A DNA stretch of 64,000 nt from Minisyncoccota bacterium (GTDB taxonomy: Bacteria; Patescibacteriota; Minisyncoccia; Phycocordibacterales; Phycocordibacteraceae), in the NCBI GenBank assembly GCA_035627655.1, contig DASPLI010000001.1:259355-323354 (forward strand), given 5' to 3'. Both the position numbers and the translations under genes were made by a program. Shown piece by piece: positions 10,144 to 47,687 of this stretch. Numbering within the stretch: position 1 is the stretch's first letter; every line of letters begins with the position of its first letter. The notes beneath the pieces were generated by a model. The model did no database searches. It saw nothing but the letters and a program-made list of their open reading frames with translations, and was not told where the DNA came from.

Positions 10144-10554
10144 ATGCCAACTATCAATCAGCTCCAGAAGAAGCGCCGCAAGTCGCCCGCGAGGAAGTCC
10201 AAAGTCCTCGCTCTTGGTCGTGGTTTCAACCACCTGGAAAACCGCCCTACGTTCTACCCGTCTCCTTTTAAGCGTGGCGTCTGCGTCAAGGTAACCACCA
10301 AGACCCCTCGCAAGCCGAACTCCGCTATCCGCAAGATCGCTCGCGTACGCCTCACTAACGGCATGGAAGTCACCGCCTACATTCCGGGCGAGGGCCACAA
10401 CCTCCAGGAGCACTCAGTCGTTATGCTTCGCGGTGGTCGCGTGAAGGATATCGGTGTCCAGTACACGATCGTCCGTGGCCGCCTTGATACCGCCGGTATC
10501 GAGAAGCGCCGCCGTGGCCGCTCTCGCTACGGAGCTAAGAAGCCTAAGAACTAA
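10144..10554 (+). CDS. rpsL: 30S ribosomal protein S12
   Basis: [24 protein letters not shown]...PKKPNSA; canonical S12. Confidence 0.95.
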
Positions 10555-10556
10555 GC

Positions 10557-11018
10557 ATGCGTCGACCTATTAAAAAGCGTGCCCCGCGCGTTCCCGACAT
10601 TGAATACAAGTCGGAAGCTATTGCGCGCTTCATCAATACCGTCATGCTCGACGGTAAGAAGGATACTGCTCGTAAGGTAGTCTATGATGCCTTGAACATC
10701 ATCAAGAAGGATGCTGATCCGCTTGAAACCTTTGAGACTGCAATCCGCAACGTCTCTCCGCTTATGGAAGTCCGCTCTCGCCGCGTCGGTGGTGCAAACT
10801 ACCAGGTGCCGCGCGAGGTTCCCCAGCAGCGCCGCGTCTCTTTGGCCTACCGCTGGCTCATCAACGCAGCCCGCGCAAAGAAAGGGAAGCCAATGGCCGA
10901 GAAGCTTGCAAACGAAATCTTGATGGCCGCCAAGAACGAAGGCGAGGCAATCAAGAAGAAGGACGATATGCACCGCATGGCAGAAGCCAACAAGGCCTTC
11001 GCTCACTTCGCCTGGTAA
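10557..11018 (+). CDS. rpsG: 30S ribosomal protein S7
   Basis: Canonical S7 sequence, immediately after rpsL. Confidence 0.95.
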
Positions 11019-11033
11019 GACCGAATATACGAG

Positions 11034-11060
11034 AAAAAGCGCCCACCGGGGCGCTTTTTC
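11034..11060 (+). terminator. Intrinsic terminator after rpsG (AAAGCGCCC-ACCG-GGGCGCTTT + TTT)
   Basis: Hairpin plus T-run; separates rpsL-rpsG from fusA. Confidence 0.8.
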
Positions 11061-11142
11061 ATATATTGACCAACCGTATTATTTATGGTATTGTCAAGCC
11101 AGACTCGGGGTTGTCCCGAGCGTACTTGAAAAGGAGAAACAG

Positions 11143-11979
11143 ATGCAGCTTCGCAATCTCATCATTGCGATCCTCTGCGGCTTCCTGGTCGGCGCGATCG
11201 TGACCTACCACCCGCTTGCGCTCAACAACCCGGACTACTGGGCACTGGGAGCGATTGCGGGCGGCGTGATCGGCTGGATCGTCTACGACGTGAAGGCGTT
11301 TTTCGCCGCCGTCCAGCGTGCAGCGATGCGCACGTGGGCGGACCTGACGCGGGAGCGCGTTCGCGAGCCGAAAGAGCGCTTCGTGCTCTCGCGGCTTGAG
11401 CGCAGCTACGTGTTCTGGTGCGAAATGAAAAATTTCGCGATCAACTCGTCGTTCATGGCGTTGTTCTTCCTCGTCGTCGGCCTTGGCACCTACGAGCTCG
11501 CCGACGGCGAGATCCGCTTGTCTGCCTCGATGATGATGTCGTCCGTGATGTACGGATTCGTCATGACGCTCTACGCGCTGTCCGTCCTCTTTGCGCCGCT
11601 CTTCTCGGGCGGGCGCGAAGTTGTGCGGTCGGCTCGCCGGAACGAACTGAATCCCGAACAGCACCTCGCTGATCGGATCGCCATCCTCAAAAAGGAAGCG
11701 GGCGAATACAACGTCGTCGCGATCACCTACTTGCTCGTCGCGCACGGTATTCCGGCGGCGATCTTCTGGGTCGTCCGCGGAGCCTTCCTGCTGCTGAAGT
11801 ACACCTATCTCTTCTCGGCGTGCAACGGCCGCATGGCGTCCTTTATCGGCGTCACAGCCGGTCTCGCATCTGCCGCGTTCCTCAACAACCTACCGCTTGG
11901 TCTGGGCATCGGCCTCTTCACGGGGTTCGTGCTCTGGAGCATGCAGTTCGGCGTTGAGCGCGTGCGAGCCTGGAAGTAA
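11143..11979 (+). CDS. Polytopic membrane protein, paralog 1 of a duplicated module
   Basis: 278 aa; N-terminal region similar in pattern to 13319..14077 product; own promoter TTGACC-N17-TATTGT at ~11069-11097 and leader hairpin. Confidence 0.5.
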   Translation: MQLRNLIIAILCGFLVGAIVTYHPLALNNPDYWALGAIAGGVIGWIVYDVKAFFAAVQRAAMRTWADLTRERVREPKERFVLSRLERSYVFWCEMKNFAINSSFMALFFLVVGLGTYELADGEIRLSASMMMSSVMYGFVMTLYALSVLFAPLFSGGREVVRSARRNELNPEQHLADRIAILKKEAGEYNVVAITYLLVAHGIPAAIFWVVRGAFLLLKYTYLFSACNGRMASFIGVTAGLASAAFLNNLPLGLGIGLFTGFVLWSMQFGVERVRAWK

Positions 11980-11990
11980 TCCAACAAAAA

Positions 11991-12024
11991 GGGCGCGGAC
12001 ACACTAGTCCGCGCCCTTGATGCA
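11991..12024. terminator. Bidirectional terminator, GGGCGCGGAC...GTCCGCGCCC family (copy 1)
   Basis: 10-bp stem flanked by A-run (5') and T-rich (3'). Confidence 0.6.
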
Positions 12025-12025
12025 T

Positions 12026-12361
12026 TTATCGCCACGAGAAGTACACGAGTCCGTGACAAAGCGTCACCGATACCATCACCTCCGCACCCCAGCCGCGCGC
12101 ATCGACCCACTCTTTTATGAGCGATCGCACGTGATGTTCTTCAGCATGGTTGTGAAGCGCGAGAAGTGCGCTGTGGATCTGCTTGCACACTCGATGATCC
12201 ATTCCGTATCGGTAGCTGCGGTTATTTGCGCTTTCGATGACACCTTCCTCAAGGAGGTTGATTTCCTCATGAAAGGCTTTCTTCAGTGCTTGGATCTTCT
12301 TGCGCACTCGGCCGTTGTACAGTCGTCGGTTTCGCCGTATGGCTTCCAACACCTTCGACAT
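12026..12361 (-). CDS. Hypothetical helical protein (start MSKVLEAIRRNRR...)
   Basis: Convergent with upstream gene, shares bidirectional terminator; protein-like composition; no recognisable domain. Confidence 0.3.
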   Translation of the reverse strand: MSKVLEAIRRNRRLYNGRVRKKIQALKKAFHEEINLLEEGVIESANNRSYRYGMDHRVCKQIHSALLALHNHAEEHHVRSLIKEWVDARGWGAEVMVSVTLCHGLVYFSWR

Positions 12362-12456
12362 GTGGGACCTCCTTCCGGGTCGGACGATAGCACTTTTTGC
12401 GATATCGAGCACGACGCGTATACTCGCCAGAGAAGTTACTTATGGAGCGAGAAACC

Positions 12457-13203
12457 ATGCAAGTCATTGCAACTTCTACGGAGTTGCGCAAGGAACCGGA
12501 CTATTCTGCTTCGCTTGAAACAGAATTGTTAGCAGGCACATTGTTTGAGGTGGAGGGTGAACACCACCATCCTCTGGACAACAGCCGGTGGTACTTCGGG
12601 CGCTCTGCGTTTGATGGGTATGTTGGCTGGGTCAACAGTTCTGGACTCAGTCGCATCATCACGACGCCGACGCACCGTGTTTCGGTTGTGCGCACACCTG
12701 TGTATTTCGAACCCGACTTCAAGAGTCCGCGCCGTTCGATGCTCTCCATGAACGCACAGGTGTGCGTCGTAGAAGAGAAGGACGAATACGCGAAACTCGA
12801 CCACTTCGGATGGGTCTTTAAAGATCAATTGGTCTTGGCAGGGAAGCAGGCGACTGATTTTGTGGCGGAAGCTATGAAGCTGGTCGGTACGCCCTATTAC
12901 TGGGGTGGATTCGATACCAATCATGGTATCGACTGCTCGGCAGTGGTGCAGCATGCGCTCTTTGCTTGCGGCATCACGGTTCCGCGCAATAGCGGCGATC
13001 AGCAGAAAGCCATCGGGGTTGCCTGCGACGATCTTCCGTGTGAGCGTGGCCAGCTCTTGTTCTGGCCGGGGCATGTCGGGATCGTGGTAAGTTCTACCGA
13101 ACTCCTCCATGCCTCGATCTTCTGCCGGAACGTCGCGATCGAACCGCTTGAAAAAGCGATTGCCGAGCGCGGCGAGCCGACGGCTCGAAAGCGCATTGCG
13201 TAA
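12457..13203 (+). CDS. NlpC/P60-family cell-wall peptidase with N-terminal SH3b-like domain (YkfC/gamma-D-Glu-L-diamino acid endopeptidase-like)
   Basis: YYWGG, GIDCSAVVQ (Cys nucleophile), conserved His downstream; ATG 12457 with upstream GGAGCG. Confidence 0.7.
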   Translation: MQVIATSTELRKEPDYSASLETELLAGTLFEVEGEHHHPLDNSRWYFGRSAFDGYVGWVNSSGLSRIITTPTHRVSVVRTPVYFEPDFKSPRRSMLSMNAQVCVVEEKDEYAKLDHFGWVFKDQLVLAGKQATDFVAEAMKLVGTPYYWGGFDTNHGIDCSAVVQHALFACGITVPRNSGDQQKAIGVACDDLPCERGQLLFWPGHVGIVVSSTELLHASIFCRNVAIEPLEKAIAERGEPTARKRIA

Positions 13204-13210
13204 GTAGGAA

Positions 13211-13244
13211 GGGCGCGGACCAGCTCCGCGCCCTTTGACTTTTG
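13211..13244 (+). terminator. Terminator, GGGCGCGGA...TCCGCGCCC family (copy 2), overlapping -35 of next promoter
   Basis: 9-bp stem + TTTGACTTTTG. Confidence 0.6.
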
Positions 13245-13262
13245 TATAAATAGTTGTAGAAT
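13235..13262 (+). promoter_or_regulatory. Putative promoter TTGACT-N16-TAGAAT for paralog 2
   Basis: Near-consensus hexamers. Confidence 0.45.
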
Positions 13263-13318
13263 GCTTTTCAGACGCGGGCCCCTTCGGGCCCTTGTCGTTT
13301 GTGAGAAAGGAAACAGTT

Positions 13319-14077
13319 ATGAGTCTCTACCGGACTCTGATTGGCGTTATCTGCGGCTTTGCCGCGGGCGCCATTCTGACCTCGCTCTTGCTTGCGGGAA
13401 CGCACTGGGCCATCGGCGGACTATTCGGCGCTTTCGTCGGATGGGTTGCAGTGGATCCTGTTGCATTCTTCGTCGGCATCAAAGACGCGTTCGCAGCGAC
13501 GATTCGCAAATACCAGCAACGGCCGCAATGGACGAAGCTCCAGCGCGATCATCGGTTCTGGTACATCGCGGAAATGGCCGCGATGCAGCAATCGATCATC
13601 GTCTGGTTCGGCATCCCCTTCTCGTACTTCACCTTCACGGTGGCCGTGGATGGGATTACGCCGCTCGAAATCACGCTGTATATGATCGGCACGCTGAACG
13701 TCGTCTTCCTGATGATGAACACGAGCCTATTTTTCAGCGCGCCTCGCCATGAAGGTGAAGAATGGATGCAGAAATCGATCGCCGAGCGCAAGCAAATCGT
13801 GCGCGAATGGAATCCGATCGTGGCACCTGTGAGCTTCGTCCGCCTCGTGTGGCGATCTCGACATGCGGTCATTCACTTCGTGCAGGGCGTCTGGGACCGG
13901 ACGGTCTCCGATGCGCGGCTTATCGCTGCCATCGGCGCCTCTGCTGGCCTTGCGGCTGCGCACTTTGGCGGCGGAAACGCTGTCGCGCATGCACTCGGGC
14001 TCGGCTTCGGGCTTCTGCTTGCGACCGGATTTCACGTCGGCTACCGCCGGCGCCCGGTGAAGGTCAAGAACGACTAA
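13319..14077 (+). CDS. Polytopic membrane protein, paralog 2 of duplicated module
   Basis: ATG 13319 after GAGAAAGGAAACAGTT; N-term LIGVICGFAAGAIL.. resembles IIAILCGFLVGAIV.. of paralog 1. Confidence 0.5.
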   Translation: MSLYRTLIGVICGFAAGAILTSLLLAGTHWAIGGLFGAFVGWVAVDPVAFFVGIKDAFAATIRKYQQRPQWTKLQRDHRFWYIAEMAAMQQSIIVWFGIPFSYFTFTVAVDGITPLEITLYMIGTLNVVFLMMNTSLFFSAPRHEGEEWMQKSIAERKQIVREWNPIVAPVSFVRLVWRSRHAVIHFVQGVWDRTVSDARLIAAIGASAGLAAAHFGGGNAVAHALGLGFGLLLATGFHVGYRRRPVKVKND

Positions 14078-14088
14078 CCACAAACGAA

Positions 14089-14122
14089 AGGCGCGGACTA
14101 TCTTGGTCCGCGCCTTTTTGTA
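14089..14122. terminator. Bidirectional terminator, AGGCGCGGAC...GTCCGCGCCT family (copy 3)
   Basis: 10-bp stem + TTTTTG. Confidence 0.7.
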
Positions 14123-14123
14123 G

Positions 14124-14663
14124 TTATGACAGTAGTGGTGGCGGTGGGTGAGTGTATACCTTATCCACCACGAATCCTGCCGTCGGCATCACCGACTCTT
14201 CGTGATATTCCTGTGTTTCGCTTATGAGCAGCGCCGCGCATTTCGTTTCCTGGAAGGTCTCCAAGAATGCGTGCGCCCACGTGTTGCTCGCGTTTCCCGC
14301 GCTTTGCACCAGAAACTCAAACGGAACATCCTCAGCGGCATCTGTTGTCAGGTTCGCCATCAAGGGTCCGATCAGTTTCTTGAGCATCTGGCGTCCCGGC
14401 ATTGGAATGCGGAAGGCCACGATCAGTTCCGGATCCGGCGACTCAAGCTCCCAGAGATAGATCTCGGGTGAGAGCGTGTGGTCGCGCATGTAGGTGAAGC
14501 AGGGAGTCAGCTGCGCAAGATCAAGCAGGCGGTAGGCGAGCGTGACCGTCGGATAGAGCCGGGGAAGTCCCGGCACGCTTCCAAGGCCCACATTCGTAAA
14601 CGCAGGAGGGGCATCAAGAACAAGTCGATGTACGCCGGCGGCCACAATCCAGGCCAATTTCAT
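14124..14663 (-). CDS. Hypothetical cytoplasmic protein
   Basis: ATG at 14661-14663 preceded by GGAGG; 179 aa; no recognisable domain. Confidence 0.4.
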   Translation of the reverse strand: MKLAWIVAAGVHRLVLDAPPAFTNVGLGSVPGLPRLYPTVTLAYRLLDLAQLTPCFTYMRDHTLSPEIYLWELESPDPELIVAFRIPMPGRQMLKKLIGPLMANLTTDAAEDVPFEFLVQSAGNASNTWAHAFLETFQETKCAALLISETQEYHEESVMPTAGFVVDKVYTHPPPPLLS

Positions 14664-14783
14664 TGGGTACCTCCAGTGGTAATCAACGTCCAAGCGAAAC
14701 CGTAGCATACGTTGCGTTTTTCCTCGAGACTCAGTATTCTTCGAAGTAACGCTTCGGCGCCTTTTTATTTACTCTACCTATAT

Positions 14784-16931
14784 ATGAATCGCGATTATCC
14801 ACTAGAGCGAGTGCGCAACTTCGGTATCGTCGCCCACGTCGACGCCGGCAAGACCACCACGTCTGAGCGCGTCCTCTACTACACCGGTGCACAGCACAAG
14901 ATCGGCGAAGTGCACGAGGGTGAAACCACGACCGACTGGATGGAGCAGGAGCGCGAGCGCGGCATCACCATCACTGCAGCTGCTATTACCTGCTTCTGGT
15001 CCAAGTCCCAGGAAAAGGACAAGAAGGATCAGTCCAAGAAGTACCGCTTCAACATCATCGACACGCCAGGTCACATCGACTTCACCGCCGAAGTGAAGCG
15101 CTCCATGCGTGTCTTGGATGGCGCGATCGTCGTGTTCGACGGCGTTGCTGGCGTTGAGCCGCAGTCGGAGACCAACTGGCGCTACGCCGACGAGGCGAAC
15201 GTGCCGCGCGTTTGTTTCATCAACAAGCTCGACCGCACCGGCGCATCGTTCGAGGATTCCTACAAGTCCATCCTCGACCGCCTTTCAAAGAAGGCAGTGC
15301 GCGCACAGATCCCTATGGGCGCAGAGGGAAATTTCGAGGGTGTCGTCGACCTTCTTTCGATGAAGGCATACACCTTCTCCGGCAAGATGGGCGAGGAAGT
15401 TATTGAGGGCGAGATCCCAGCAGAATTCGTCGAAGAGGCGAAGAAGTATCGCGGGGAATTCGTCGAGCGCATCGTCTCGACTGACGAGAACGCAATGAAC
15501 GCATACCTTGAAGGCAATGAGCCGTCGCTTGAGGATCTTAAGGCGCTCCTCCGCAAGGCAGTTATTGCAAACGAAATCTTCCCGGTCTACACCGGTTCCG
15601 CACTCAAGAACAAGGGCGTGCAGCTCGTCTTGGACGCGGTCGTCGACTATCTCCCGTCTCCGCTCGATCTCCCGGCAGTGAAGGGAACCAACCCGAAGAC
15701 GAACGAAGAGATCACCCGTCAGGCGTCTGATAGCGAGCCGTTCACCGCGCTTGCGTTCAAGCTGCAGACCGACCCGTTCGTGGGTGCTCTTACCTTCTTC
15801 CGCGTATATGCAGGTTCGGTATCTGCCGGTTCTTACATCTATAACGCGAACACCGGATCAAAGGAGCGCGTCGGCCGCATCGTGCGCCTCCAGGCTGACA
15901 AGCGCGAAGAAGTGGAACAGGTCTTCACTGGTGAAATTGCCGCTTTCGTTGGTCTGAAAGATACGAAGACTTCCCATACGCTCTGCGACGAAAACAATCC
16001 GATCATCCTCGAGCAGATTAAGTTCCCTGAGCCAGTGGTGTCGCTTCGCATCGAGCCGGCAACCAAGGCTGACCAGGAAAAGATGGGCATGGCTATCAGG
16101 AAGCTTGCGGACGAAGATCCGACTTTCAAGGTTTCTTCTGACGAAGAGACGGCCGAGACGATCATCTCCGGCATGGGCGAGCTCCATCTTGAAATTCTCG
16201 TTGATCGCATGAAGCGCGAATTCAACGTCGTCGCAAACGTCGGTAAGCCGCAGGTGGCATACCGCGAGACGATTCTCGGCTCTGCAGATGCAGAAGGTAA
16301 GTACATCAAGCAGACGGGCGGTAAGGGTCAGTACGGCCACGTGAAGATCAAGATGAAGCATCTTGAACCGCTTGATCCGGAGGCAAAGATCGCGAAGAAC
16401 GTCACGCGCGAGGATCACTTCGAATTTATTAACAACATCAAGGGAGGTGCGATTCCGGGCGAATTCATCAACCCGATTGAGAAGGGTATTCGCGAGGCAA
16501 TGTCCCGCGGTATTCTCGCCGGTTATCCGGTCGTCGACGTGTCAGTCGACCTCTACGACGGCTCCTTCCACGATGTCGACTCCTCGGAAATCGCCTTCAA
16601 GATCGCAGCATCGATGGCCTTCCAGGACGGCGCCAACAAGGCAAAGCCAGTCATCCTTGAGCCGATCATGGCCGTTGAGGTTGTGGTTCCGGAGCAGTTC
16701 ATGGGTGATATCACCGGTTCGCTCTCGGGTAAGCGCGGTGCGATCGAGGGCATGGAAGATCGCGGCATGAATAAGGCCATCAAGGCCAAGGTGCCGCTCT
16801 CTGAAATGTTCGGCTACACCACCACACTTCGCTCCATGACGGAGGGCCGCGGTTCCATGACCATGGAATTCGACCACTACGAAGTGGTGCCGCAGAACGT
16901 CGCGAACGAAATCATCGCCGCGAGGAAATAG
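14784..16931 (+). CDS. fusA: Elongation factor G
   Basis: [19 protein letters not shown], full EF-G domain set; ATG at 14784. Confidence 0.95.
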
Positions 16932-16940
16932 CAGCACGCA

Positions 16941-16970
16941 AAAGCGCCCCTCTCGGGGCGCTTTTCGTAT
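16941..16970. terminator. Bidirectional intrinsic terminator after fusA
   Basis: AAAGCGCCCC-TCTC-GGGGCGCTTT + TCGTATT. Confidence 0.8.
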
Positions 16971-17407
16971 TAGCTTGTTTGTTCCAAGTCCTCCTCTGGG
17001 GGTTCGTAGAGGGCGTCCACCACAATGATGGTCGCCTTACAGTCGTTGTTACGGCATTGATACGCTTCGGGTTCAATAGTCTCAAATGCATCGCGGCGTT
17101 CGCGGCGCCAGCCGGGCGGTTTTGCGCCTGCTTTGAGCATGGGAGATCCGCACTGTGTGCAGATGCTGATGACCGGATAGCGAAGTTCCATCGGGCACTT
17201 CGAGCAGCGTTGCTCGATGTACGTGATGTACGACTTTTTGGTCGGATCGTGACCGGGGATTCTCGAGAAGTCTATTTCGACCGCGCGCCGTTGGGGCGGG
17301 TCGTACTTGTGGAGGCATTCGCTGTGCGCCTGCCGTACCAAGTCACGGAGTTCTCGGATCGGTCCTCGATCCTTGCTGGGATCAGTCGGTTGCGTCCGTG
17401 CGAACAT
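16970..17407 (-). CDS. Cys-rich zinc-ribbon protein, hypothetical
   Basis: CSKCP...CTQCGSP and CRNNDC motifs. Confidence 0.45.
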   Translation of the reverse strand: MFARTQPTDPSKDRGPIRELRDLVRQAHSECLHKYDPPQRRAVEIDFSRIPGHDPTKKSYITYIEQRCSKCPMELRYPVISICTQCGSPMLKAGAKPPGWRRERRDAFETIEPEAYQCRNNDCKATIIVVDALYEPPEEDLEQTS

Positions 17408-17517
17408 GTTCCCTCCAGAGGGGCTGGTTAAACAAAAAGAAAGGGCGTCTGGTCCCTCATAGTAGATACCACAGGTGAAGACAGAATGAGAAGAGGGGTG
17501 GGGTATACTACCTACAC

Positions 17518-18006
17518 ATGGCCTTTTTCGAACGAGGAAAGCAGGAAGCGCAGAAAGCGATGCTCAGAGAATATGTGGATTCCAAGTCGCTTGAATATGA
17601 CGCTGCAATGCAAAATGCAGAGCGAATCCAGTCAGAACTTTTGCTTGCCCAGACGCGTCTGAGTGAAATCGAGCATACAAATCAGGAGCGTGCGGTAACC
17701 AAGAAGCAGAAGGAGCACACCTCACTCTTCACTACTGCAAAAGACGCCTGCGTCGGACTCAAGGCATGGTTTGAAACGAAGGGTGGTCTCAAAGAACGTA
17801 ATCAAATGGCAGAAGGTGCCTATCGTGCACGCCGAGAGACGCGACAGATAGAACTCGATGGCTTAACTGAGCGTCGTGACGACCTCTCTCGCTCCCTTGA
17901 ACAGATGCGTATGGCGATGGGACGCATTCGCGAACGTCGTTCGCGCCTCTTTGCAGACAACAACACGCTGCTTGAAACCTCTCGCAGCATTCTTGCCGCC
18001 GCCTAA
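17518..18006 (+). CDS. Coiled-coil hypothetical protein
   Basis: 162 aa, charged helical composition. Confidence 0.4.
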   Translation: MAFFERGKQEAQKAMLREYVDSKSLEYDAAMQNAERIQSELLLAQTRLSEIEHTNQERAVTKKQKEHTSLFTTAKDACVGLKAWFETKGGLKERNQMAEGAYRARRETRQIELDGLTERRDDLSRSLEQMRMAMGRIRERRSRLFADNNTLLETSRSILAAA

Positions 18007-18008
18007 CT

Positions 18009-18254
18009 ATGAACCTACCCATTCTTAAACTCCTAGTAGAACGAAGCGCACTGAGCGACGAGCGTATGATTCAGGCGCGAGCTATCTTCGCCCGCGCGGA
18101 CGAACGAGGTTCCCTGGTTGGGGAGGAGCAGGCAGCGATCGCGAAACTCTTTGAGGAGGAGGTGCAGGAGAATACCCGGATGATCAAGGAGCTTGATGAG
18201 GCCGCCGCCATGCTTGATCGTGCGATGCGACCGCTTGCTATTGCGGTTCCCTAA
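18009..18254 (+). CDS. Small hypothetical protein
   Basis: 81 aa, adjacent/coupled to upstream ORF. Confidence 0.3.
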   Translation: MNLPILKLLVERSALSDERMIQARAIFARADERGSLVGEEQAAIAKLFEEEVQENTRMIKELDEAAAMLDRAMRPLAIAVP

Positions 18255-18291
18255 AAAGTGCTAGCATAGTCTCGGGAGTAGAGGAGGTTCT

Positions 18292-18762: not shown

Positions 18763-18767
18763 TACAA

Positions 18768-18800: not shown

Positions 18801-18803
18801 TGG

Positions 18804-38014: not shown

Positions 38015-38022
38015 CTTTTTAT

Positions 38023-38709: not shown

Positions 38710-38715
38710 ACGAGT

Positions 38716-39135: not shown

Positions 39136-39138
39136 TTT

Positions 39139-39330: not shown

Positions 39331-39334
39331 CACC

Positions 39335-39574: not shown

Positions 39575-39583
39575 TACACGCGT

Positions 39584-39961
39584 ATGATCCAGGACCGTTC
39601 CATCGTCACGATTGCAGATAACACCGGCGCCAAGGTCGGACGCGTGTTCAAGGTGCTTGGTGGCTCAAAGCGCCGCTACTCCGAGCTTGGCGATGTCGTC
39701 GTGATTTCCATTCAGACCGCCGAGCCGCGCAAGGCCGTGAAGAAGAAGGATGTCGTCCGCGCGGTCGTTGTTCGCCAGCGAAAGCCGTATCGCCGTGCAA
39801 ACGGCTCGTACATCCGCTTTGACGACAACGCCGTCGTTATTATTGAGAAGCAGGGTAAGGAGATGGGTCCGAAAGGAAACCGCGTCTTCGGTCCGGTTGC
39901 TCGCGAACTTACCGAAAAGGGGTGGCAGAACATTGCGTCTCTAGCACCAGAAATCGTCTAG
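39584..39961 (+). CDS. rplN: 50S ribosomal protein L14
   Basis: MIQDRSIVTIADNTGAK canonical. Confidence 0.95.
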   Translation: MIQDRSIVTIADNTGAKVGRVFKVLGGSKRRYSELGDVVVISIQTAEPRKAVKKKDVVRAVVVRQRKPYRRANGSYIRFDDNAVVIIEKQGKEMGPKGNRVFGPVARELTEKGWQNIASLAPEIV

Positions 39962-39964
39962 CGT

Positions 39965-40288
39965 ATGAGGAAATACACCGACACACAGCAGAAGTCCTAC
40001 ACTGCCGGCCGCCGCAAGCGAAATGCGCGCAAGCCGCTTCCGGTCCGCGTGATCAAGATGAAGGTCAAGCGCGGCGACACCGTTGAGGTGATCACCGGCA
40101 AGGACAAGGGCAAGAAGGGCGAGGTAAGCCGCGTACTCCCGAAGGAGAACCGCGTCGTGATTGATGGCGTCAACGTCGTCAAGCGCAGCCTCCGCCGCAC
40201 CGGCACCCGCCAGTCTGGCCGCATTATCGAGCGCCCGGCGCCGATCCACGCATCAAACGTGCGCGTCGTAACGAAGAAGTCTAAGTAA
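39965..40288 (+). CDS. rplX: 50S ribosomal protein L24 (possibly with 31-aa basic N-terminal extension; alternative start ATG 40058)
   Basis: KVKRGDTVEVITGKDKGKKGEV core. Confidence 0.88.
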   Translation: MRKYTDTQQKSYTAGRRKRNARKPLPVRVIKMKVKRGDTVEVITGKDKGKKGEVSRVLPKENRVVIDGVNVVKRSLRRTGTRQSGRIIERPAPIHASNVRVVTKKSK

Positions 40289-40295
40289 TACTCGT

Positions 40296-40829
40296 ATGAT
40301 GCTTTCCAAACAAAAACAGCAGACCTCCTTCGAAGCGCTTGCGCCTTCCTTGGGCTACACCAACCGCATGGCGGCTCCCCGCATCATGAAGGTGGTAGTG
40401 TCTTCCGGCGTCGGCAAGAAGCGCGACAAGGCACAGCTTGCGCTTGTGGCTGACCGCCTTGCAAAGATTACCGGCCAGAAGGCGTCTCCGCGCGCGGCAC
40501 GCCTCTCCATTGCGCAGTTCAAGATGCGCGAAGGCGATATCGTCGGCTACCAGGTGACGCTTCGCGGCTCCCGCATGTTCGACTTCCTCGACAAGCTCAT
40601 CCACATCGCGCTTCCGCGCACCCGCGACTTCCGCGGTATCAATGAGAGCGCCGTCGACGAAATGGGCAATCTCACGATCGGTATCCGCGAGCACACCATT
40701 TTCCCGGAGACTGCCGATGAGGACCTCAAGGACGTGTTCGGTCTTGCCATCACGGTCGTCACGACCGCTAAGACCAAGGAGGAAGCGTCCGCATTCTTCC
40801 GCCACCTCGGCGTTCCCTTCAAGAAGTAG
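40296..40829 (+). CDS. rplE: 50S ribosomal protein L5
   Basis: Canonical L5. Confidence 0.95.
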   Translation: MMLSKQKQQTSFEALAPSLGYTNRMAAPRIMKVVVSSGVGKKRDKAQLALVADRLAKITGQKASPRAARLSIAQFKMREGDIVGYQVTLRGSRMFDFLDKLIHIALPRTRDFRGINESAVDEMGNLTIGIREHTIFPETADEDLKDVFGLAITVVTTAKTKEEASAFFRHLGVPFKK

Positions 40830-40838
40830 GAAAACAAC

Positions 40839-40872
40839 AAAGGCCCGAGCGAGAGCTCGGGCCTTTTTGCGT
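40839..40872. terminator. Bidirectional terminator after rplE
   Basis: AAAGGCCCGAGC-GAGA-GCTCGGGCCTTT + TTGCGTTT. Confidence 0.8.
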
Positions 40873-41783: not shown

Positions 41784-42053
41784 ATGGCTAAACGATCCCA
41801 ACTGGCACGAAATGCCAAGAAGGCAAAACTCGCCGAGCGCTTCAAGGAGAAGCGCGCGGCTCTTAAGGCTGCCGGGGACTACGAGGGCCTCCAGAAGCTC
41901 CCTCGCAACTCCTCCCCGGTCCGCATCAAGAACCGCTGCGCCATCTCTGGCCGTGGTCGGGGCTATATCCGTGCCTTTGGCCTCTCCCGCATCCAGTTCC
42001 GCGAGCTTGCTCGCGAGGGTAAGATCCCGGGCGTTAAGAAGGCTTCCTGGTAA
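41784..42053 (+). CDS. rpsN: 30S ribosomal protein S14 (long, non-zinc type)
   Basis: ATG 41784; [16 protein letters not shown]... [15 protein letters not shown] core. Confidence 0.9.
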
Positions 42054-42063
42054 TACTTTTCAT

Positions 42064-42456
42064 ATGATTAGCGACCGCGTCGGCGATTTCATCATCCGTC
42101 TCAAGAATGCAGGTGCCATTGGGCAGGAGTCTATTACCTTGCCGCACTCAAACCACCTCGAGGCTATTGCGAAGAAGCTTAAGGAGCTTGGCTTTGTTGC
42201 TGACGTCTCCGTTTCCAAGAAGGACCCGAAGCAGCTTGAAGTTGCGCTTGCGTACGACGCGCAGGGCAACCACAAGATCAACGACGTGAAGCGCATTTCA
42301 AAGCCGGGCCGCCGTCTCTACGCTGGCGCCAAGGACGCACACAACGTGAAGAATGGTGCAGGTGCTCGCATCCTCTCAACGCCGAAGGGCATCCTCTCTG
42401 ACGCTGAGGCACGCAAGGTGCGCGCCGGCGGCGAAACCCTCTTTGAGGTCTGGTAA
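42064..42456 (+). CDS. rpsH: 30S ribosomal protein S8
   Basis: ATG 42064; MISDRVGDFIIRLKNA canonical. Confidence 0.93.
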   Translation: MISDRVGDFIIRLKNAGAIGQESITLPHSNHLEAIAKKLKELGFVADVSVSKKDPKQLEVALAYDAQGNHKINDVKRISKPGRRLYAGAKDAHNVKNGAGARILSTPKGILSDAEARKVRAGGETLFEVW

Positions 42457-42462
42457 TCCTAT

Positions 42463-42996
42463 ATGTCACGCCTTGCAAAAAAACCGATTCCCGTCCCGCC
42501 GAAGGTCCAGGTGACCGCGGCTGATGGCGTGCTTACGGTCAAGGGTGCCAAGGAGACCCTGACGCGCTCGGTGCATTCCTCGGTTGATATCACCGTTGAA
42601 TCTGAGGGTGTTGTCATCAAGCCAAAGAACACCTCCCGTCTCGCACGCGCGCTCACCGGCACCTTTGCCGCACACGTTCGCGCCATGATGCAGGGCGTCG
42701 AGACGCCATTTAAGAAGGTCTTGGTCCTCAACGGCGTCGGGTACCGCGTCGAGCTCAAAGGCAAGGATCTTGTCTTTGCCGTTGGTTTCTCGCATCCGGT
42801 TACGCTCCCTATTCCGGAGGGCATCACTGCCACCGTCGCAAAGAACGTCATCACGATTGAAGGCGCTGACAAGCAGCAGGTTGGTCAGTTTGCCGCTGAG
42901 GTTCGCGGCGTGAAGCCGCCGGAGCCGTATCTCGGCAAGGGTATCAAGTACGAGGACGAGGTCATCCTCCGTAAGCAGGGCAAGAAGGCCGTCTAG
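42463..42996 (+). CDS. rplF: 50S ribosomal protein L6
   Basis: Canonical L6. Confidence 0.95.
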   Translation: MSRLAKKPIPVPPKVQVTAADGVLTVKGAKETLTRSVHSSVDITVESEGVVIKPKNTSRLARALTGTFAAHVRAMMQGVETPFKKVLVLNGVGYRVELKGKDLVFAVGFSHPVTLPIPEGITATVAKNVITIEGADKQQVGQFAAEVRGVKPPEPYLGKGIKYEDEVILRKQGKKAV

Positions 42997-43005
42997 TAAT
43001 TTCGT

Positions 43006-43350
43006 ATGCCAACTCTCTCTAAAGCAGCATCTCGTGTTCGCCGCCATAAGCGCGTTCGCGCAAAGATCAAAGGTACTACCGAGCGTCCTCGTCTTGCGGT
43101 GTACCGTTCCAATCGCTTCATCAGCGTGCAGGTTATCGATGATGTGAAGGGTGCAACGCTCGCAAGCGCGCATGGTCGCGAATTCCCGGGTTCTCTCGGC
43201 AAGCAGGCTGCTGCTATCGGCAAGGCAATTGCTGAGCGCGCAAAAAAGGCAGGCGTCTCTGCGGTCGTGTTTGATCGTGGTGGCTATGCCTATGCCGCAC
43301 AGGTGAAGTCGATTGCAGATGCAGCACGCGAGGGCGGACTTACTTTCTAA
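43006..43350 (+). CDS. rplR: 50S ribosomal protein L18
   Basis: Canonical L18. Confidence 0.93.
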
Positions 43351-43356
43351 ACTTTT

Positions 43357-43914
43357 ATGGCTGAAACTACGACCGTTATGGATACTCCAAAGACAGACGC
43401 TCCGCGCGGGGGTCGTGGACCGGCACGTGGCCGTGGCGGACAGCGCTCGGGCGGACGTCCTCGTGAGCGTGCTCCCCGCGAGCGCAGCGAGTTCGATCAG
43501 GTGAACATCGAGGTTCGCCGTGTGGCTCGCGTTATGGCCGGTGGTCGCCGCTTCTCCTTCAGCGTTGCGGTGGTGATCGGTGATCGCAAGGGCCGCGTCG
43601 GCGTTGGTCTTGGTAAGGGTGCGGACACCGCGCTTGCTATCGATAAGGCAGTCCGCGATGCGCGCCGCAACCTCATTACGGTGCCGCTCACCAAGGACCG
43701 CTCGATTGCGCACGATGTTTCTGCTTCCTACGCATCAACCACGCTCACGATTATCCCGAGCCCGGGCCGCGGTCTCGTTGCAGGATCTGCTATGCGCACC
43801 GTGCTTGAATACGCCGGTATCGGAAACGTCGTCGGCAAGATTCTTACCCGCACGAAGAACAAGCTCACGATTGCTCGTGCGACCGTTGCCGCTCTCAAGA
43901 AGCTTTCCAAATAA
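43357..43914 (+). CDS. rpsE: 30S ribosomal protein S5
   Basis: Canonical S5 with Gly/Arg-rich N-term. Confidence 0.95.
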   Translation: MAETTTVMDTPKTDAPRGGRGPARGRGGQRSGGRPRERAPRERSEFDQVNIEVRRVARVMAGGRRFSFSVAVVIGDRKGRVGVGLGKGADTALAIDKAVRDARRNLITVPLTKDRSIAHDVSASYASTTLTIIPSPGRGLVAGSAMRTVLEYAGIGNVVGKILTRTKNKLTIARATVAALKKLSK

Positions 43915-43916
43915 GT

Positions 43917-44363
43917 ATGCAGTCAAACACTCTCGCTCCGAAGAATGCCCGCATCAAGAGCCCGCGCGTTGGTCGCGGTGGCAAGCGTGGTAAGACCTCT
44001 GGTCGTGGTACCAAGGGTCAGAAGGCTCGCTCAGGTCGCAAGATGCGCCCGGAGATGCGCGACCTTATCAAGAAGCTTCCGAAGCTTCGCGGTCATGGTA
44101 AGAACCGCAGCCGCACGGTCCGCAACCGCGCTGGCTTTGTGCCAGTAAATCTCGCTGCGCTTGAGGCAATCTTCGATAACGGCGCAACCGTCACTCCGGC
44201 AGTGCTCGTTGATAAGGGTCTTGCTCGCGTTCGCGGTGGTCGCATGCCGCGCGTGAAGATTCTTGGCACGGGCGAACTCACGAAGGCGCTCTCGGTCTCG
44301 GGCTGCGCAGCATCAGACAGCGCAAAGGCAGCCATTGAGAAGGCAGGGGGTTCCGTCCTCTAG
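43917..44363 (+). CDS. rplO: 50S ribosomal protein L15 (directly follows rpsE; no rpmD/L30 gene)
   Basis: Canonical L15. Confidence 0.93.
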   Translation: MQSNTLAPKNARIKSPRVGRGGKRGKTSGRGTKGQKARSGRKMRPEMRDLIKKLPKLRGHGKNRSRTVRNRAGFVPVNLAALEAIFDNGATVTPAVLVDKGLARVRGGRMPRVKILGTGELTKALSVSGCAASDSAKAAIEKAGGSVL

Positions 44364-44370
44364 GCGATCA

Positions 44371-45642
44371 ATGAATGCCCTCATCCACAAGCTAAAGCTT
44401 ATCTTCGGGGACCCGGTGCTTCGCATGCGTCTCCTCTTCGTGCTTGCCGCGTTTGCGGTCTACCGCCTCCTGGCTGCTATTCCGATTCCGGGCGTCAACG
44501 AGTTCGCACTCGCGCAGTTTTTCCAGAATAACCAGTTCCTCGGACTGCTCTCCGTCTTCTCCGGCGGCGGTTTCGCAACGCTTTCGTTGGTGATGCTTGG
44601 CGTCGGTCCGTACATTACTGCATCGATCTTGATGCAGCTTCTGACCGTGATCTTCCCGGCGGTAAAGCGCATGTATACCGAAGAAGGGGAGGCGGGCCGC
44701 ACTAAGTTCATCGCGTGGGGTCGCATGCTCACCATTCCGTTTGCTATTTTGCAGGCGGTCGCGTTCCTTTCGCTTCTGGAGACCCAGGGCGTGGTCGCAG
44801 CACTCTCTCCGTTTGAGTTTGCGGTCAACGTCTTTCTCGTAGCCGGAGGCTCCGTACTCCTTATGTGGATCGGCGAGTTGATTACGGAATTTGGTATTGG
44901 CAATGGCGTCTCGCTCATTATCTACGCCGGTATCATTGCCTCCATTCCATCCGCAATCTCGCAGATTCTCTTTACGGCAAGCGCACAGAACATTCCGTCC
45001 TACCTCGGCTTCCTCGTGCTTGCGCTTGCAACCATCTACGCCGTGGTGACGGTCTCCGAAGCTGAGCGCTCAATTCCGATTGCCTATGCACGCCAGGTGC
45101 GCGGCGCTGCGTCTGCAGCAGGTGCTGCAACCTACCTCCCGATCCGCCTTCTACAGGCTGGCGTGATTCCAATCATCTTTGCGCTCTCGCTCCTCCTCTT
45201 GCCGCAGATGGCGCTTACCGCGCTTGCAGCGGTCGGGGTAACCTGGGCAGTTTCAGCAAACCTCGCCTACGCTGCGTTTGCGGCAAACCCGCTTGCGTAC
45301 GGCGCCGTCTACTTCGTGCTCGTCGTGATGTTCACGTACTTCTATACCTCCATCACGTTTGAGCCGCACCGCGTCGCGGAGAATCTTCAGAAGACGGGTG
45401 CGTTTGTGCCAGGCGTTCGTCCGGGTCGCGAGACGGAGAAGTATGTCGGAAACGTTGTTTCGCGCGTGACGCTCCCAGGCGCGCTCTTCCTCGGCTTGGT
45501 TGCCGTGATTCCATTCGTCGTGCAGGGACTGACCGGCATCTCCGCAATTCTCGTTGGCGGTACGGCGCTTCTTATTGCCGTTACCGTGCTGCTTGATCTT
45601 ATCCGTAAGGTGGATGCGCAGGCGTCACTTCGCGAATACTAA
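44371..45642 (+). CDS. secY: Preprotein translocase subunit SecY
   Basis: ATG 44371; 10 TM, canonical SecY. Confidence 0.93.
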   Translation: MNALIHKLKLIFGDPVLRMRLLFVLAAFAVYRLLAAIPIPGVNEFALAQFFQNNQFLGLLSVFSGGGFATLSLVMLGVGPYITASILMQLLTVIFPAVKRMYTEEGEAGRTKFIAWGRMLTIPFAILQAVAFLSLLETQGVVAALSPFEFAVNVFLVAGGSVLLMWIGELITEFGIGNGVSLIIYAGIIASIPSAISQILFTASAQNIPSYLGFLVLALATIYAVVTVSEAERSIPIAYARQVRGAASAAGAATYLPIRLLQAGVIPIIFALSLLLLPQMALTALAAVGVTWAVSANLAYAAFAANPLAYGAVYFVLVVMFTYFYTSITFEPHRVAENLQKTGAFVPGVRPGRETEKYVGNVVSRVTLPGALFLGLVAVIPFVVQGLTGISAILVGGTALLIAVTVLLDLIRKVDAQASLREY

Positions 45643-45668
45643 AAGGCCCTTTGAGGGCCTTTTTGGTC
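45642..45668 (+). terminator. Intrinsic terminator after secY
   Basis: AAAGGCCC-TTTGA-GGGCCTTT + TTGG. Confidence 0.7.
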
Positions 45669-45686
45669 GCGGTACACTCTGTTTAC

Positions 45687-46250
45687 ATGACTCCGAGAAC
45701 TATTTTCTTTATTGGTAAGCCAGGCTGCGGCAAGGGTACGCAGGCGCGGCTCTTGTCTGAGCATACCGGCTGGCCAATCATCGGCGCGGGCGCGCAGTTT
45801 CGCCAGATCGCTGCAGAGGAAACGCCGGCAGGTGAGCGCACGAAGCGGGATATCGACCAGGGACTTCTCATGCCGCACTGGTTTGCTATGTATCTCTACC
45901 TGAAGGGACTCTTCTCGCTTCCGGGGAATGCGTCAGTCATTTTCGATGGCTTCAACCGCAAACTTGCCGAAGCAGAACTTATCGTCGCATCGCTCACCTG
46001 GCTTGAGCGCCCGTTTGATGTTGTGCATATCGCCGTCTCTGACGAGGAGGTGCGCCGCCGCCTTGAAGGACGCAAATCTGAGGGTCGTGCAGACGATCAT
46101 TCGGTCGATACACGGCTGACCGAGTACGAGACCTACACCACCAAGGCCATCTCTCTGTTTGAGACACATGGCGTACTCAAGACCGTCAACGGCGAGCAAC
46201 CGCCAGAAGCAATTGCCAAGGATGTGCTTGCCGTCCTCAATCTTGCATGA
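45687..46250 (+). CDS. adk: Adenylate kinase (short type lacking zinc LID)
   Basis: P-loop FFIGKPGCGKGTQA; position after secY. Confidence 0.8.
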   Translation: MTPRTIFFIGKPGCGKGTQARLLSEHTGWPIIGAGAQFRQIAAEETPAGERTKRDIDQGLLMPHWFAMYLYLKGLFSLPGNASVIFDGFNRKLAEAELIVASLTWLERPFDVVHIAVSDEEVRRRLEGRKSEGRADDHSVDTRLTEYETYTTKAISLFETHGVLKTVNGEQPPEAIAKDVLAVLNLA

Positions 46251-47023
46251 CCGTACGAAACACTCTAGAGCGTGGGCGTATCGTTGAGGCCGGCCGCCGG
46301 CTTGGCGTGGTGCTTGAAGCAGTGTCGCAGAAGGTTGCGCCCGGGGTAACGACCCGTGAGCTTGATCAGCTTGCCGAGCAGTTGATTCGTGCAGAGGGTG
46401 ATGTGCCGGCCTTTAAGGGCTACACCCCAGAAGGCGCACCTCGGCCGTACCCGGCAGCGCTTTGTGTGTCGGTAAACGACGAGGTTGTGCACGGCATTCC
46501 AGGAGATCGTAAGCTCGTGGAAGGCGATATCGTGTCACTTGATCTTGGCCTCGTGCACGAAGGGCTGATCGTGGATTCGGCTGTCACGGTGCCTGTTGGG
46601 AAGGTGAGTGAGACGTCGCTCAAACTTATGCGAGCAACCGAAGCGGCGCTCGCTGCAGCAATTGCCGCTGCGCGCCCGGGCGGGTATGTCGGTGATATTG
46701 CACACGCAACAGAAACGGCATTTTCCGGTACCGGATTTTCCGTCGTGAAGGTGCTTGGTGGACACGGTGTTGGCACTGCAGTACACGAGGAGCCGTACAT
46801 TCCAAACGCTGGCAGGGCAGGCACGGGAGAGAAGTTAGTTGAAGGCATGGTGCTTGCGCTTGAGCCGATTGCAAACGAAGGAAAAGCGGGAGTCGTGCTT
46901 GCAAGCGACGGCTATACGTATCGCGCGAAGGACGGATCGCGTTCCGCGCATTTTGAGCACACGATTCTCCTTGAGGGGGATGGCGCCATCATCTTGACGC
47001 GTCGTCCGAGCGAAGTGGCGTAA
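46247..47023 (+). CDS. map: Methionine aminopeptidase type I
   Basis: Pita-bread fold metal ligands; ATG overlaps adk stop. Confidence 0.9.
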   Translation: MTVRNTLERGRIVEAGRRLGVVLEAVSQKVAPGVTTRELDQLAEQLIRAEGDVPAFKGYTPEGAPRPYPAALCVSVNDEVVHGIPGDRKLVEGDIVSLDLGLVHEGLIVDSAVTVPVGKVSETSLKLMRATEAALAAAIAAARPGGYVGDIAHATETAFSGTGFSVVKVLGGHGVGTAVHEEPYIPNAGRAGTGEKLVEGMVLALEPIANEGKAGVVLASDGYTYRAKDGSRSAHFEHTILLEGDGAIILTRRPSEVA

Positions 47024-47078
47024 GGAACGGCTTTCCGCTATACTCCGGACATATAAGAGCCTTAGGGCTATTTTTCGT

Positions 47079-47687
47079 ATGGTACATCCACACCCGGCAA
47101 CCGAGCGTACGTTCGTCATTCTGAAGCCTGATGCGGTCCAGCGCGGACTCATCGGCGAGATTATCAAGCGCTTTGAGCGCGTGGGCCTCAAGGTCACGCA
47201 CCTCTCATTTCAAATGCTTGACCAGAAGCGCGTAAACGAGCATTACGGCAAAGAAGACGAGTGGTATTTGCGTAAAGGAAACGGCATTATCGAGAACCGC
47301 AAGGCGCACGGCCTCCCAGTGGAGAAGGATGCGCTTGAGTACGGCAAGGACATCATCCGCGTCGTCGAGGCGTACATGATCTCTGGTCCGGTAGTCATCC
47401 TCGTATTGCAGGGGAATCAGGCGGTTGCGGTGGTGAAGAAGCTGGTTGGTTCAACCGAACCGACGACCTCAGACGTTGGTACGATCCGCGGTGATTTTAC
47501 GCTCGACTCGTACAGCATCTCTGCGCTTGATGATCGCGGTATCCGCAACCTGATTCACTGCTCGGACTCTCCGGAGGAAGCAGAGCGCGAGATCAAGCTC
47601 TGGCTTACGGAAGACCAGATCCTCAAGTACCGCCTCGTCTCCGAACAGATTCTCTACGACGTGAACCTCGACGGGATCATGGAGTAA
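47079..47687 (+). CDS. ndk: Nucleoside diphosphate kinase with ~45-aa insertion
   Basis: FVILKPDAVQRGLIGEII, NLIHCSD (catalytic His). Confidence 0.8.
   Translation: MVHPHPATERTFVILKPDAVQRGLIGEIIKRFERVGLKVTHLSFQMLDQKRVNEHYGKEDEWYLRKGNGIIENRKAHGLPVEKDALEYGKDIIRVVEAYMISGPVVILVLQGNQAVAVVKKLVGSTEPTTSDVGTIRGDFTLDSYSISALDDRGIRNLIHCSDSPEEAEREIKLWLTEDQILKYRLVSEQILYDVNLDGIME

Follow-up and report, generated by a model that had tools for sequence, protein, structure and literature searches.

The str-S10-spc cluster of translation genes in a 64,000-nt stretch of Minisyncoccota DNA (contig DASPLI010000001.1; hereafter the window) raises the question of whether genes inserted within its operons at five junctions are recent invaders of one genome or belong to the way in which the cluster is organized throughout a lineage. 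This cluster is a textbook example of deep synteny, and its contiguity underlies the syntenic ribosomal protein (r-protein) marker sets by which lineages of the candidate phyla radiation (CPR) are placed. Comparison with other members of class Paceibacteria suggests that the cluster has probably been re-partitioned lineage-wide into autonomous units, the boundaries of which would be permissive sites for the turnover of native genes.

According to the listing of open reading frames (ORFs), their translations and Pfam matches, the cluster occupies positions 10144-47687, entirely on the forward strand and in the universal order: rpsL, rpsG, fusA, tuf, rpsJ, rplC, rplD, rplW, rplB, rpsS, rplV, rpsC, rplP, rpmC, rpsQ, rplN, rplX, rplE, rpsN, rpsH, rplF, rplR, rpsE, rplO, secY, adk, map and ndk. 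Only rpmD is missing from the canonical series that runs from rpsL through adk-map on one strand. Within the canonical str, S10 and spc operons, contiguity is broken at five places, by gaps of 0.8-13 kb (Table 1), and every other junction in the window measures at most 55 bp, including the canonical str/S10 border at tuf/rpsJ (24 nt) and the canonical S10/spc border at rpsQ/rplN (9 nt). Two independently assembled contigs, one of 742,731 bp from ENA and a Logan contig from SRR7003767, show this arrangement too. In Escherichia coli K-12, all five junctions measure 14-70 nt, and the open sites are tufA/rpsJ (16.9 kb, with chiA, bfd, bfr and gsp genes) and rpsQ/rplN (164 nt); the partitions of the two clusters are complementary.

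The junctions were surveyed in the best 80 L2-matching loci from species-representative genomes of Paceibacteria, in which the cluster genes were located by tblastn, all junctions were measured, and a gap of at least 250 bp was counted as open. The five junctions that are interrupted in the window are open in 31-86% of these relatives, compared with 0-8% for all others except secY/adk at 35% (Table 1), and the smallest gaps recorded were 78 nt at rplB/rpsS and 110 nt at fusA/tuf. The gap DNA of the relatives is coding, with ORF coverage of 73-78%, ORFs on both strands and only 69 N bases, and about one third of the gap ORFs have a hydrophobic segment. Nearly all of this content is particular to one species: 330 of the 412 gap ORFs were singletons in an all-against-all BLASTP comparison, and the recurrent families are varied (diacylglycerol kinase, pyrF, pyrD, type IV pilin, mechanosensitive channel-like, DUF5674 and PaaX-like). 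DUF3298 recurs in nine loci, always at rplB/rpsS and on the reverse strand, and an IS200-like Y1 transposase (PF01797, RayT-like) is cargo at the same junction in six relatives, including L019. Enzymes of the IS200/RayT type act on DNA hairpins, and hairpins are plentiful at the boundaries of the cluster.

Cargo differs even among close relatives. Three loci with EF-G 92-94% identical to that of the window carry, at rpsG/fusA, a Mur ligase and two small ORFs (L088), an NlpC/P60 gene and one ORF (L089), or a single reverse ORF (L090), and the window has five genes there. The only cargo that the window shares with its closest relatives consists of the NlpC/P60 gene (46% identity; at rpsG/fusA also in L089, L010 and L020), the 155-aa ORF of fusA/tuf (29% identical to a gene that L088 has at this junction) and DUF3298 (49-55% identity); the flanking r-proteins are 83-95% identical. 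Since there are few shared genes, and their divergence is far greater than that of the flanking r-proteins, each junction seems to hold an old, fast-evolving resident together with quickly changing additions.

Sequence motifs at the junctions were scored as promoter-like sites (9 or more matching positions out of 12, within 200 nt upstream) or as terminator hairpins (within 100 nt after a gene), the final terminator scan including hairpins in which the U-tract pairs to an upstream A-tract. Within the window, terminator hairpins follow rpsG, fusA, rpsJ, rplB, rplE and secY and none of the 21 other genes, and promoter-like sites precede four block heads (rpsL, rplC, rpsS and rpsN). For TTGCAT-N17-TATAGT, found ahead of both rpsL and rplC, and for TTGACA-N17-TAGATT, found ahead of rpsS, zero matches in the window are expected by chance. 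The relatives have promoter-like sites ahead of rpsS (91%), rpsN (71%), tuf (66%), fusA (41%), rplC (35%) and rpsL (30%) and, in small samples, ahead of adk (33%, n=21) and map (23%, n=13), against 2-17% for all other genes; their terminator hairpins follow rplB (54%), rplE (42%), rpsG (37%), rpsJ (36%) and fusA (35%), against 11% for secY and 0-6% for other genes. At four of the five junctions the promoter-like site is about equally frequent with and without cargo, as at rpsS (8 of 9 tight and 50 of 55 gapped loci). Because these sites are as frequent where cargo is absent, the boundary appears to precede the cargo at the most consistently open junctions, rplE/rpsN excepted. A sequence-only reading of this DNA had named the five interruptions, described their cargo, pointed out both promoter strings and proposed that terminators close the upstream blocks and promoters reopen the downstream ones; the measured gaps, the ORF listing, Pfam and BLASTP bear out the first two points, and the motif scans the others, as predicted motifs.

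The block heads share a module composed of a -10 box, about 7 nt, a GC hairpin of 4-7 bp and a U-tract. When folded individually against shuffled sequences, 44 of 45 rpsS leaders contained the hairpin, in at least 25 distinct stems (mean minimum free energy z=-2.4), which means that in these leaders the structure is conserved and the sequence is not. RNAalifold found no consensus structure in a MAFFT alignment of the rpsS leaders, in which the stems, differing in sequence, were misaligned. The hairpin is also found in relatives upstream of rpsN and about 100 nt ahead of the tuf start codon. No known r-protein leader was detected in the window by Rfam at the gathering threshold, which gave only transfer-messenger RNA (tmRNA) and one tRNA. 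Our guess is that the leader hairpin is a 5'-terminal stabiliser; it may otherwise act as an attenuator, or as an insulator against read-through from cargo. Cluster genes and cargo also differ in translation initiation: a Shine-Dalgarno (SD) motif precedes 1 of 28 cluster genes in the window and, among relatives (L001-L080), 4% of 784 r-protein gene starts, and an AGGA or GGAG motif precedes 17 of 24 cargo genes in the window (Fisher p=2e-7 for cargo versus cluster). The SD-less starts of the cluster follow U-rich sequence ending in YGT ATG or TAT ATG.

The largest insert, at rplB/rpsS, includes a 9-gene cassette for nicotinamide adenine dinucleotide (NAD) salvage that runs from a PP2C gene to nrtR. 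NrtR regulons are known to combine a Nudix and winged-helix regulator with a 21-bp palindromic operator having a GT-N7-AC core (Rodionov et al. 2008, PMC2330246). The NrtR of the window has the N-terminal Nudix and C-terminal winged-helix domains, and a candidate operator, the 21-bp palindrome TTAGTGTA-N5-TACACTAA with the GT-N7-AC core, is matched upstream of pnuC (TTAGTGTAGATTATACACTAA) and upstream of the cassette (TTAGTGTACAAATGACACTA). Eight of nine matches to this motif in 1.49 Mb of loci are at NrtR-linked cassettes; in relatives it occurs at L083:4308, L084:4061, L086:3944 and L007:7229 and 7294. The clustering of pncB, nadE, NMNAT-Nudix and pnuC genes and the form of the operator upstream of its targets are those of the described regulons (PMC2330246), from which the window differs by the location inside an r-protein cluster and by the addition of PP2C, kinase-like, 261-aa and ADP-ribosylglycohydrolase genes. 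The candidate operator upstream of the PP2C-led cassette implies that these four genes are putative members of the NrtR regulon. No description of an NrtR regulon in Parcubacteria was found in the searched literature. Further NAD genes lie past the cluster, within 47849-54341, namely pnuC (49741-50436), a nadR-like gene for NMNAT and ribosylnicotinamide kinase (50333-51400) and a gene for a second AAA_28 protein (53235-54341).

Homologues of NadE are found in Parcubacteria/Paceibacterota (76, 69, 68, 62% identity and so on), and the whole cassette is present at rplB/rpsS in L083 (GCA_964615225.1, with r-proteins approximately 75-95% identical to those of the window) and in L084 (a JGI contig). 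It is situated outside the r-protein cluster in Parcubacteria C7867-001, and NrtR with NMNAT-Nudix is found at rpsJ/rplC in L007. Sequence identities suggest a mosaic history of the cassette, its left half being closest to C7867-001 and its right half to GCA_964615225.1. The cassette is missing from four relatives whose L2 is 81-86% identical; they have just DUF3298, in one case alongside a homologue of the 2-oxoglutarate (2OG) oxygenase. The NAD island is best described as a self-contained, lineage-native regulon that was relocated into a permissive junction, not as foreign DNA. Because operators are located at the head of the cassette and at pnuC, and only a half-site was found in the 106-bp spacer between NrtR and rpsS, the island would be self-contained and is probably not a regulator of rpsS.

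The sequence-only reading had instead taken the locus for a hotspot of gene acquisition within an essential operon, and had allowed that relatives with the same interruptions would speak against this. Such an origin, by recent invasion of foreign islands into an otherwise intact operon of this one organism, now appears improbable; it would account for the size of the rplB/rpsS gap in the window (13,085 bp, the largest of 65 loci assessed, against a maximum of 7,346 bp otherwise), for the lack of homologues of most window cargo (TMa/TMb, the zinc-ribbon ORF and the 162- and 81-aa ORFs) at these junctions in any relative, and for the transposases at rplB/rpsS in six of them. It is difficult to reconcile with junctions that stand open at the same places in the 80 species surveyed, with promoter-like sites even at empty junctions, and with a NAD cassette that is native to Parcubacteria and has an identity gradient resembling that of the r-proteins. 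Nor does the cargo look foreign, as the word acquisition had implied: its G+C content at third codon positions (GC3) is core-like, mostly 0.6-0.84 (one ORF 0.52), compared with 0.39 for an atypical LCAT-like gene outside the cluster. No integrase or transposase was found among the window cargo by Pfam, the sole tRNA of the window is at 60.8 kb, away from the inserts, a repeat search around the 13-kb island yielded just short repeats attributable to chance and nothing att-like at the borders, and PADLOC matched no defence system in ten cargo proteins. Thus the positions of the interruptions proved to be shared class-wide and their contents did not, and the suggestion that the junctions are places of gene turnover is confirmed by the species-specific cargo.

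Functional coupling of the cargo to the ribosome, for example by NrtR controlling the divergent rpsS promoter or by the 2OG oxygenase modifying r-proteins, is no more probable than a recent invasion. NrtR does divergently adjoin an r-protein block head, that of rpsS in the window and L083 and that of rplC in L007; pnuC and nadR-like genes follow closely downstream of ndk; and DUF3298 and the 2OG oxygenase recur beside rplB. However, the two full operators of the window are at the cassette head and at pnuC and not in the spacer ahead of rpsS, the rpsS promoter and leader are unchanged in relatives without a nearby NrtR, C7867-001 keeps its cassette outside the r-protein cluster, cargo functions are miscellaneous across species, and the SD-led starts of cargo contrast with the SD-less starts of cluster genes. 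Far less probable still is an artefact of assembly or binning: although the window derives from a contig of a metagenome-assembled genome (MAG) and L2 appears truncated in L083, the independent Logan assembly has an identical string of genes from rplB into the island as far as pncB, with further copies, the pattern is found again in 80 species, each assembled independently, and terminators and promoters are placed precisely at the boundaries. In that closest relative (L083:571-1101, GCA_964615225.1), the L2 gene covers no more than residues 1-177 of 280, with an opposite-strand HD-domain gene coming next, and is either truncated or misassembled. A more elaborate form of class-wide re-partition, with five fixed cuts, fused canonical borders, a novel block-head module and hairpin-marked exchange sites at which turnover may be driven by IS200/RayT-type Y1 transposases, is conceivable and has better prospects than these alternatives, and is nevertheless rather unlikely.

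Under the lineage-wide re-partition into autonomous units that we favour, the cluster would consist of at least six units (rpsL-rpsG, fusA, tuf-rpsJ, rplC-rplB, rpsS-rplE and rpsN-secY), followed by adk-map and ndk. Each unit would be closed by a predicted intrinsic-terminator hairpin, and the next would be opened by its own sigma-70-like promoter, with the GC hairpin about 7 nt on, the U-tract and an SD-less start. Within units, where the genes are 2-10 nt apart, insertions would be selected against because the genes are presumably co-transcribed and translationally coupled; between units, insertion may be cost-free, which would make the boundaries permissive across class Paceibacteria. Ordinary lineage-native genes could then arrive, move and leave at these boundaries, and rplB/rpsS in the window would have received a complete, self-regulated NrtR NAD-salvage cassette beside the older DUF3298. 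We infer the starts and stops of transcription, the translational coupling and the neutrality of the boundaries from sequence.

Several points weigh against this arrangement or limit its reach. At rplE/rpsN, the promoter-like site is more common when the junction is occupied (27 of 32 gapped loci versus 8 of 17 tight loci, Fisher p=0.009), and rpsJ/rplC and rpsG/fusA are tight in many species, hence not all five boundaries are ancestral. Promoters, terminators and coupling follow from consensus patterns, and intergenic DNA, being richer in A+T, inflates the number of promoter-like matches. A hairpin and U-tract placed immediately after a promoter resembles a terminator or attenuator. Gene ends in the relatives, being extrapolations from tblastn alignments, may deviate by a few codons; the 80 loci are the best L2 matches from a candidate list of capped length and are phylogenetically related, so that the percentages do not count independent events; and the comparison set consists of Paceibacteria plus E. 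coli.

In Gammaproteobacteria and Bacilli, the inter-operon regions of this cluster have been described as invaded by a few genes (Brandis 2019, PMC6735719; Brandis 2021, PMC8046335); these genes, of which bfd-bfr, tusDCB and nrdHEF are examples, belong to the ordinary cellular complement. The window shares with that process (PMC6735719; PMC8046335) the same conserved, co-oriented translation supercluster and insertions, small or multigene, between transcription units with gene order kept. Whereas operon-cluster invasion hits the canonical inter-operon borders (rpoBC/str, str/S10 and so on), tuf/rpsJ and rpsQ/rplN are tight in the window and the open sites of Paceibacteria fall within the canonical operons str, S10 and spc; moreover, five sites are open at once, in 31-86% of species per junction. 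The Paceibacteria case is a process of the same kind as operon-cluster invasion, acting on a differently partitioned cluster at much higher frequency. With integration hotspots and genomic islands, the locus has in common variable content between conserved core flanks at a few recurrent positions, as seen in the singleton gap ORFs and the differing cargo of close relatives; it differs from them in having lineage-native cargo, without an integrase, tRNA or att repeats, defence genes or detectably atypical composition. Nothing specific on interrupted r-protein operons in CPR was found in the searched literature, which covers few subscription-journal papers.

The lineage and the gene complement of the cluster agree with expectations for CPR/Patescibacteria. 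The best 80 L2 loci all belong to MAGs of Patescibacteria, Parcubacteria, Kaiserbacteria, Nomurabacteria or Paceibacterota (60-86% identity), at NCBI the exact NadE and EF-G proteins go under the name "MAG TPA: Candidatus Paceibacterota bacterium", and the core proteins place the window in class Paceibacteria. The end of rpsE at 43914 and the start of rplO at 43917 leave no room for rpmD (L30), and no match to L30, IF1, L36, S13, S11, S4 or L17 was obtained within the window when E. coli and B. subtilis sequences served as tblastn queries. Among relatives, rpsE and rplO adjoin without rpmD in 39 of 39 assessed (1-131 nt). L30 is reported to be missing throughout the CPR, S5 and L15 being adjacent (Tsurumaki et al. 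2022, bioRxiv 10.1101/2022.01.07.475337, where the CPR-wide loss is cited from Brown et al. 2015); the window is the same, and its missing L30 is this known loss and nothing new. Within the window, the spc operon does not continue into infA/rpmJ and the alpha operon (rpsM-rpsK-rpsD-rpoA-rplQ); downstream of ndk, a membrane ORF is followed by genes for a beta-CASP nuclease, PnuC and the NadR-like protein, beyond which rplT and infC lie on the opposite strand. Probes for infA, rpmJ, rpmD, rpsM, rpsK, rpsD and rplQ had no match in the 80 relative loci, which mostly stop at map and are uninformative downstream. The sequence-only reading had anticipated the lineage, the absence of rpmD from the operon and the ending in adk-map-ndk, and on these matters it was right.

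Table 1. Junctions, gene blocks, cargo and predicted elements of the cluster. Positions are window coordinates; window gaps are from gene coordinates, and open frequencies and median gaps are from the relatives.
Feature	Position	Strand	Remark
rpsG/fusA junction			window gap 3765 bp; open in 52% of 29 loci, median gap 518
fusA/tuf junction			window gap 2333 bp; open in 85% of 40 loci, median gap 1021
rpsJ/rplC junction			window gap 819 bp; open in 31% of 61 loci, median gap 78
rplB/rpsS junction			window gap 13085 bp; open in 86% of 64 loci, median gap 914
rplE/rpsN junction			window gap 954 bp; open in 65% of 49 loci, median gap 711
secY/adk junction			open in 35% of 20 loci, median gap 52
adk/map junction			open in 8% of 13 loci, median gap 8
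map/ndk junction			open in 0% (1 locus), gap 14
19 other junctions			open in 0-2% of 26-79 loci; medians up to ~76 nt, several negative (extrapolated gene ends)
rpsL block head, TTGCAT-N17-TATAGT	10080-10108	+	promoter-like
rpsL leader hairpin, ATCCCGC-AGG-GCGGGAT	10115-10131	+	followed by U-rich SD-less leader
Block 1	10144..11018	+	rpsL 10144-10554, rpsG 10557-11018; 2-nt gap
Terminator hairpin after rpsG	11034..11059	+	AAAAAGCGCCC-ACC-GGGGCGCTTTTT
Insert 1 cargo	11143..14708
TMa membrane protein	11143-11979	+
Insert-1 terminator hairpins	11989-12018, 13208-13236, 14087-14117		shared stem GGCGCGGAC/GTCCGCGCC; one after each forward-strand cargo gene
128-aa ORF	12026-12412	-
NlpC/P60+SH3 protein	~12442-13203	+	Pfam
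TMb membrane protein	13319-14077	+	paralogue of TMa
194-aa ORF	14124-14708	-
Weak hairpin and U-tract	14741-14770		ahead of fusA
Block 2	14784..16931	+	fusA (EF-G, 715 aa)
Bidirectional terminator hairpin	16940..16965		fusA (+) / zinc-ribbon ORF (-)
Insert 2 cargo	16970..19028
CxxC zinc-ribbon ORF	16970-17407	-
162-aa ORF	17518-18006	+
81-aa ORF	18009-18254	+
155-aa ORF	18295-18762	+
74-aa membrane ORF	18804-19028	-
Block 3	19265..20851	+	tuf 19265-20464, rpsJ 20489-20851
Terminator hairpin after rpsJ	20863..20890	+	AAAACCGCCCC-AGAGAT-GGGGCGGTTTT
Insert 3 cargo, 71-aa membrane ORF	21314..21529	+	SD-like motif; hairpin 21533-21557 after
rplC block head, TTGCAT-N17-TATAGT	21558-21586	+	promoter-like; leader hairpin and U-tract 21641-21659
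Block 4	21671..24270	+	rplC, rplD, rplW, rplB
Intrinsic terminator after rplB	24279..24300	+	predicted
Insert 4, NAD island	24350..37249
2OG-Fe(II) oxygenase-like		+	first gene of insert 4
DUF3298	25241-26041	-	older resident of rplB/rpsS
Candidate NrtR operator	26122..26140		TTAGTGTA-N5-GACACTAA; cassette head
PP2C	from 26219	+
Kinase-like (621 aa), nicotinamidase-like (362 aa), 261-aa protein, ADP-ribosylglycohydrolase			between PP2C and nadE, in this order
nadE	32143-34014
pncB	34160-35527
NMNAT-Nudix	35575-36462	-
NrtR	36563-37249	-	PF21906 E=3.6e-25, PF00293 E=8e-9
rpsS block head, TTGACA-N17-TAGATT	37293-37321	+	promoter-like; hairpin CCGCC-TCA-GGCGG 37330-37342, U-tract
Block 5	37356..40829	+	rpsS, rplV, rpsC, rplP, rpmC, rpsQ, rplN, rplX, rplE
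Bidirectional terminator after rplE	40839..40866		predicted
Insert 5 cargo, 96-aa membrane ORF	40873-41163	-
Insert 5 cargo, 126-aa signal-peptide ORF	41301-41681	+
rpsN block head, TTGACA-N17-TAGTAT	41726-41754	+	promoter-like; hairpin CGCG-AAA-CGCG 41762-41772, U-tract
Block 6	41784..45642	+	rpsN, rpsH, rplF, rplR, rpsE, rplO, secY; without rpmD
Terminator-like hairpin after secY	45641-45664	+
Cluster tail	45641..47687	+	adk 45687-46250, map 46247-47023, ndk 47079-47687
Second candidate NrtR operator	49709-49727		upstream of pnuC

Most of the small cargo ORFs in the window have no matches or sub-threshold matches in Pfam and NCBIfam. In insert 1, the membrane proteins TMa and TMb are related to each other (BLASTP E=3e-17, 26% identity), and the stems shared by the three hairpins of this insert may, with these paralogues, be the trace of a local duplication. 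The three similar hairpins are a local feature, because GGCGCGGAC is not over-represented across the window (40 matches versus 36 expected), and its assignment to a family of repetitive extragenic palindromes was ruled out.

At the end of the cluster, a hairpin and U-tract leader is situated between map and ndk. The ndk product is 202 aa in length and matches Pfam NDK in two stretches, which points to an internal insertion; the typical length of NDK is 140 aa. The beta-CASP nuclease (aCPSF1/Cas14-like) is encoded at 48298-49689. Upstream of the cluster, a gene for an LCAT/alpha-beta-hydrolase-like protein of 926 aa and an adjacent 119-aa ORF (6170-9315, reverse strand) have a G+C content of about 0.44 and GC3 of 0.39-0.46, compared with about 0.57 G+C for the window. 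No other segment of foreign composition was seen; this one lies outside the cluster, and homologues adjoin the r-protein clusters of L005 and L024. The tmRNA gene (Rfam 94.8 bits; 55814-56222, reverse strand) adjoins smpB (56266-56715, reverse strand), which is an ordinary arrangement. The tRNA gene of the window (60803-60877, reverse strand) encodes tRNA-Ile. Its anticodon, TAT (UAU), is uncommon among bacteria, the majority of which decode AUA by a lysidine-modified CAU tRNA.

In these genomes, software for annotation and binning should allow for as much as 13 kb of unrelated genes between those for L2 and S19. The block-head promoters, the 5' hairpin leaders, the SD-less starts and the Parcubacterial NrtR operator are testable cis-elements for organisms without genetics. 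With gene order kept and five internal junctions open, the Paceibacteria offer a natural experiment on the cohesion of ribosomal operons, in which co-transcription and translational coupling within blocks can be contrasted with mere co-location between blocks.

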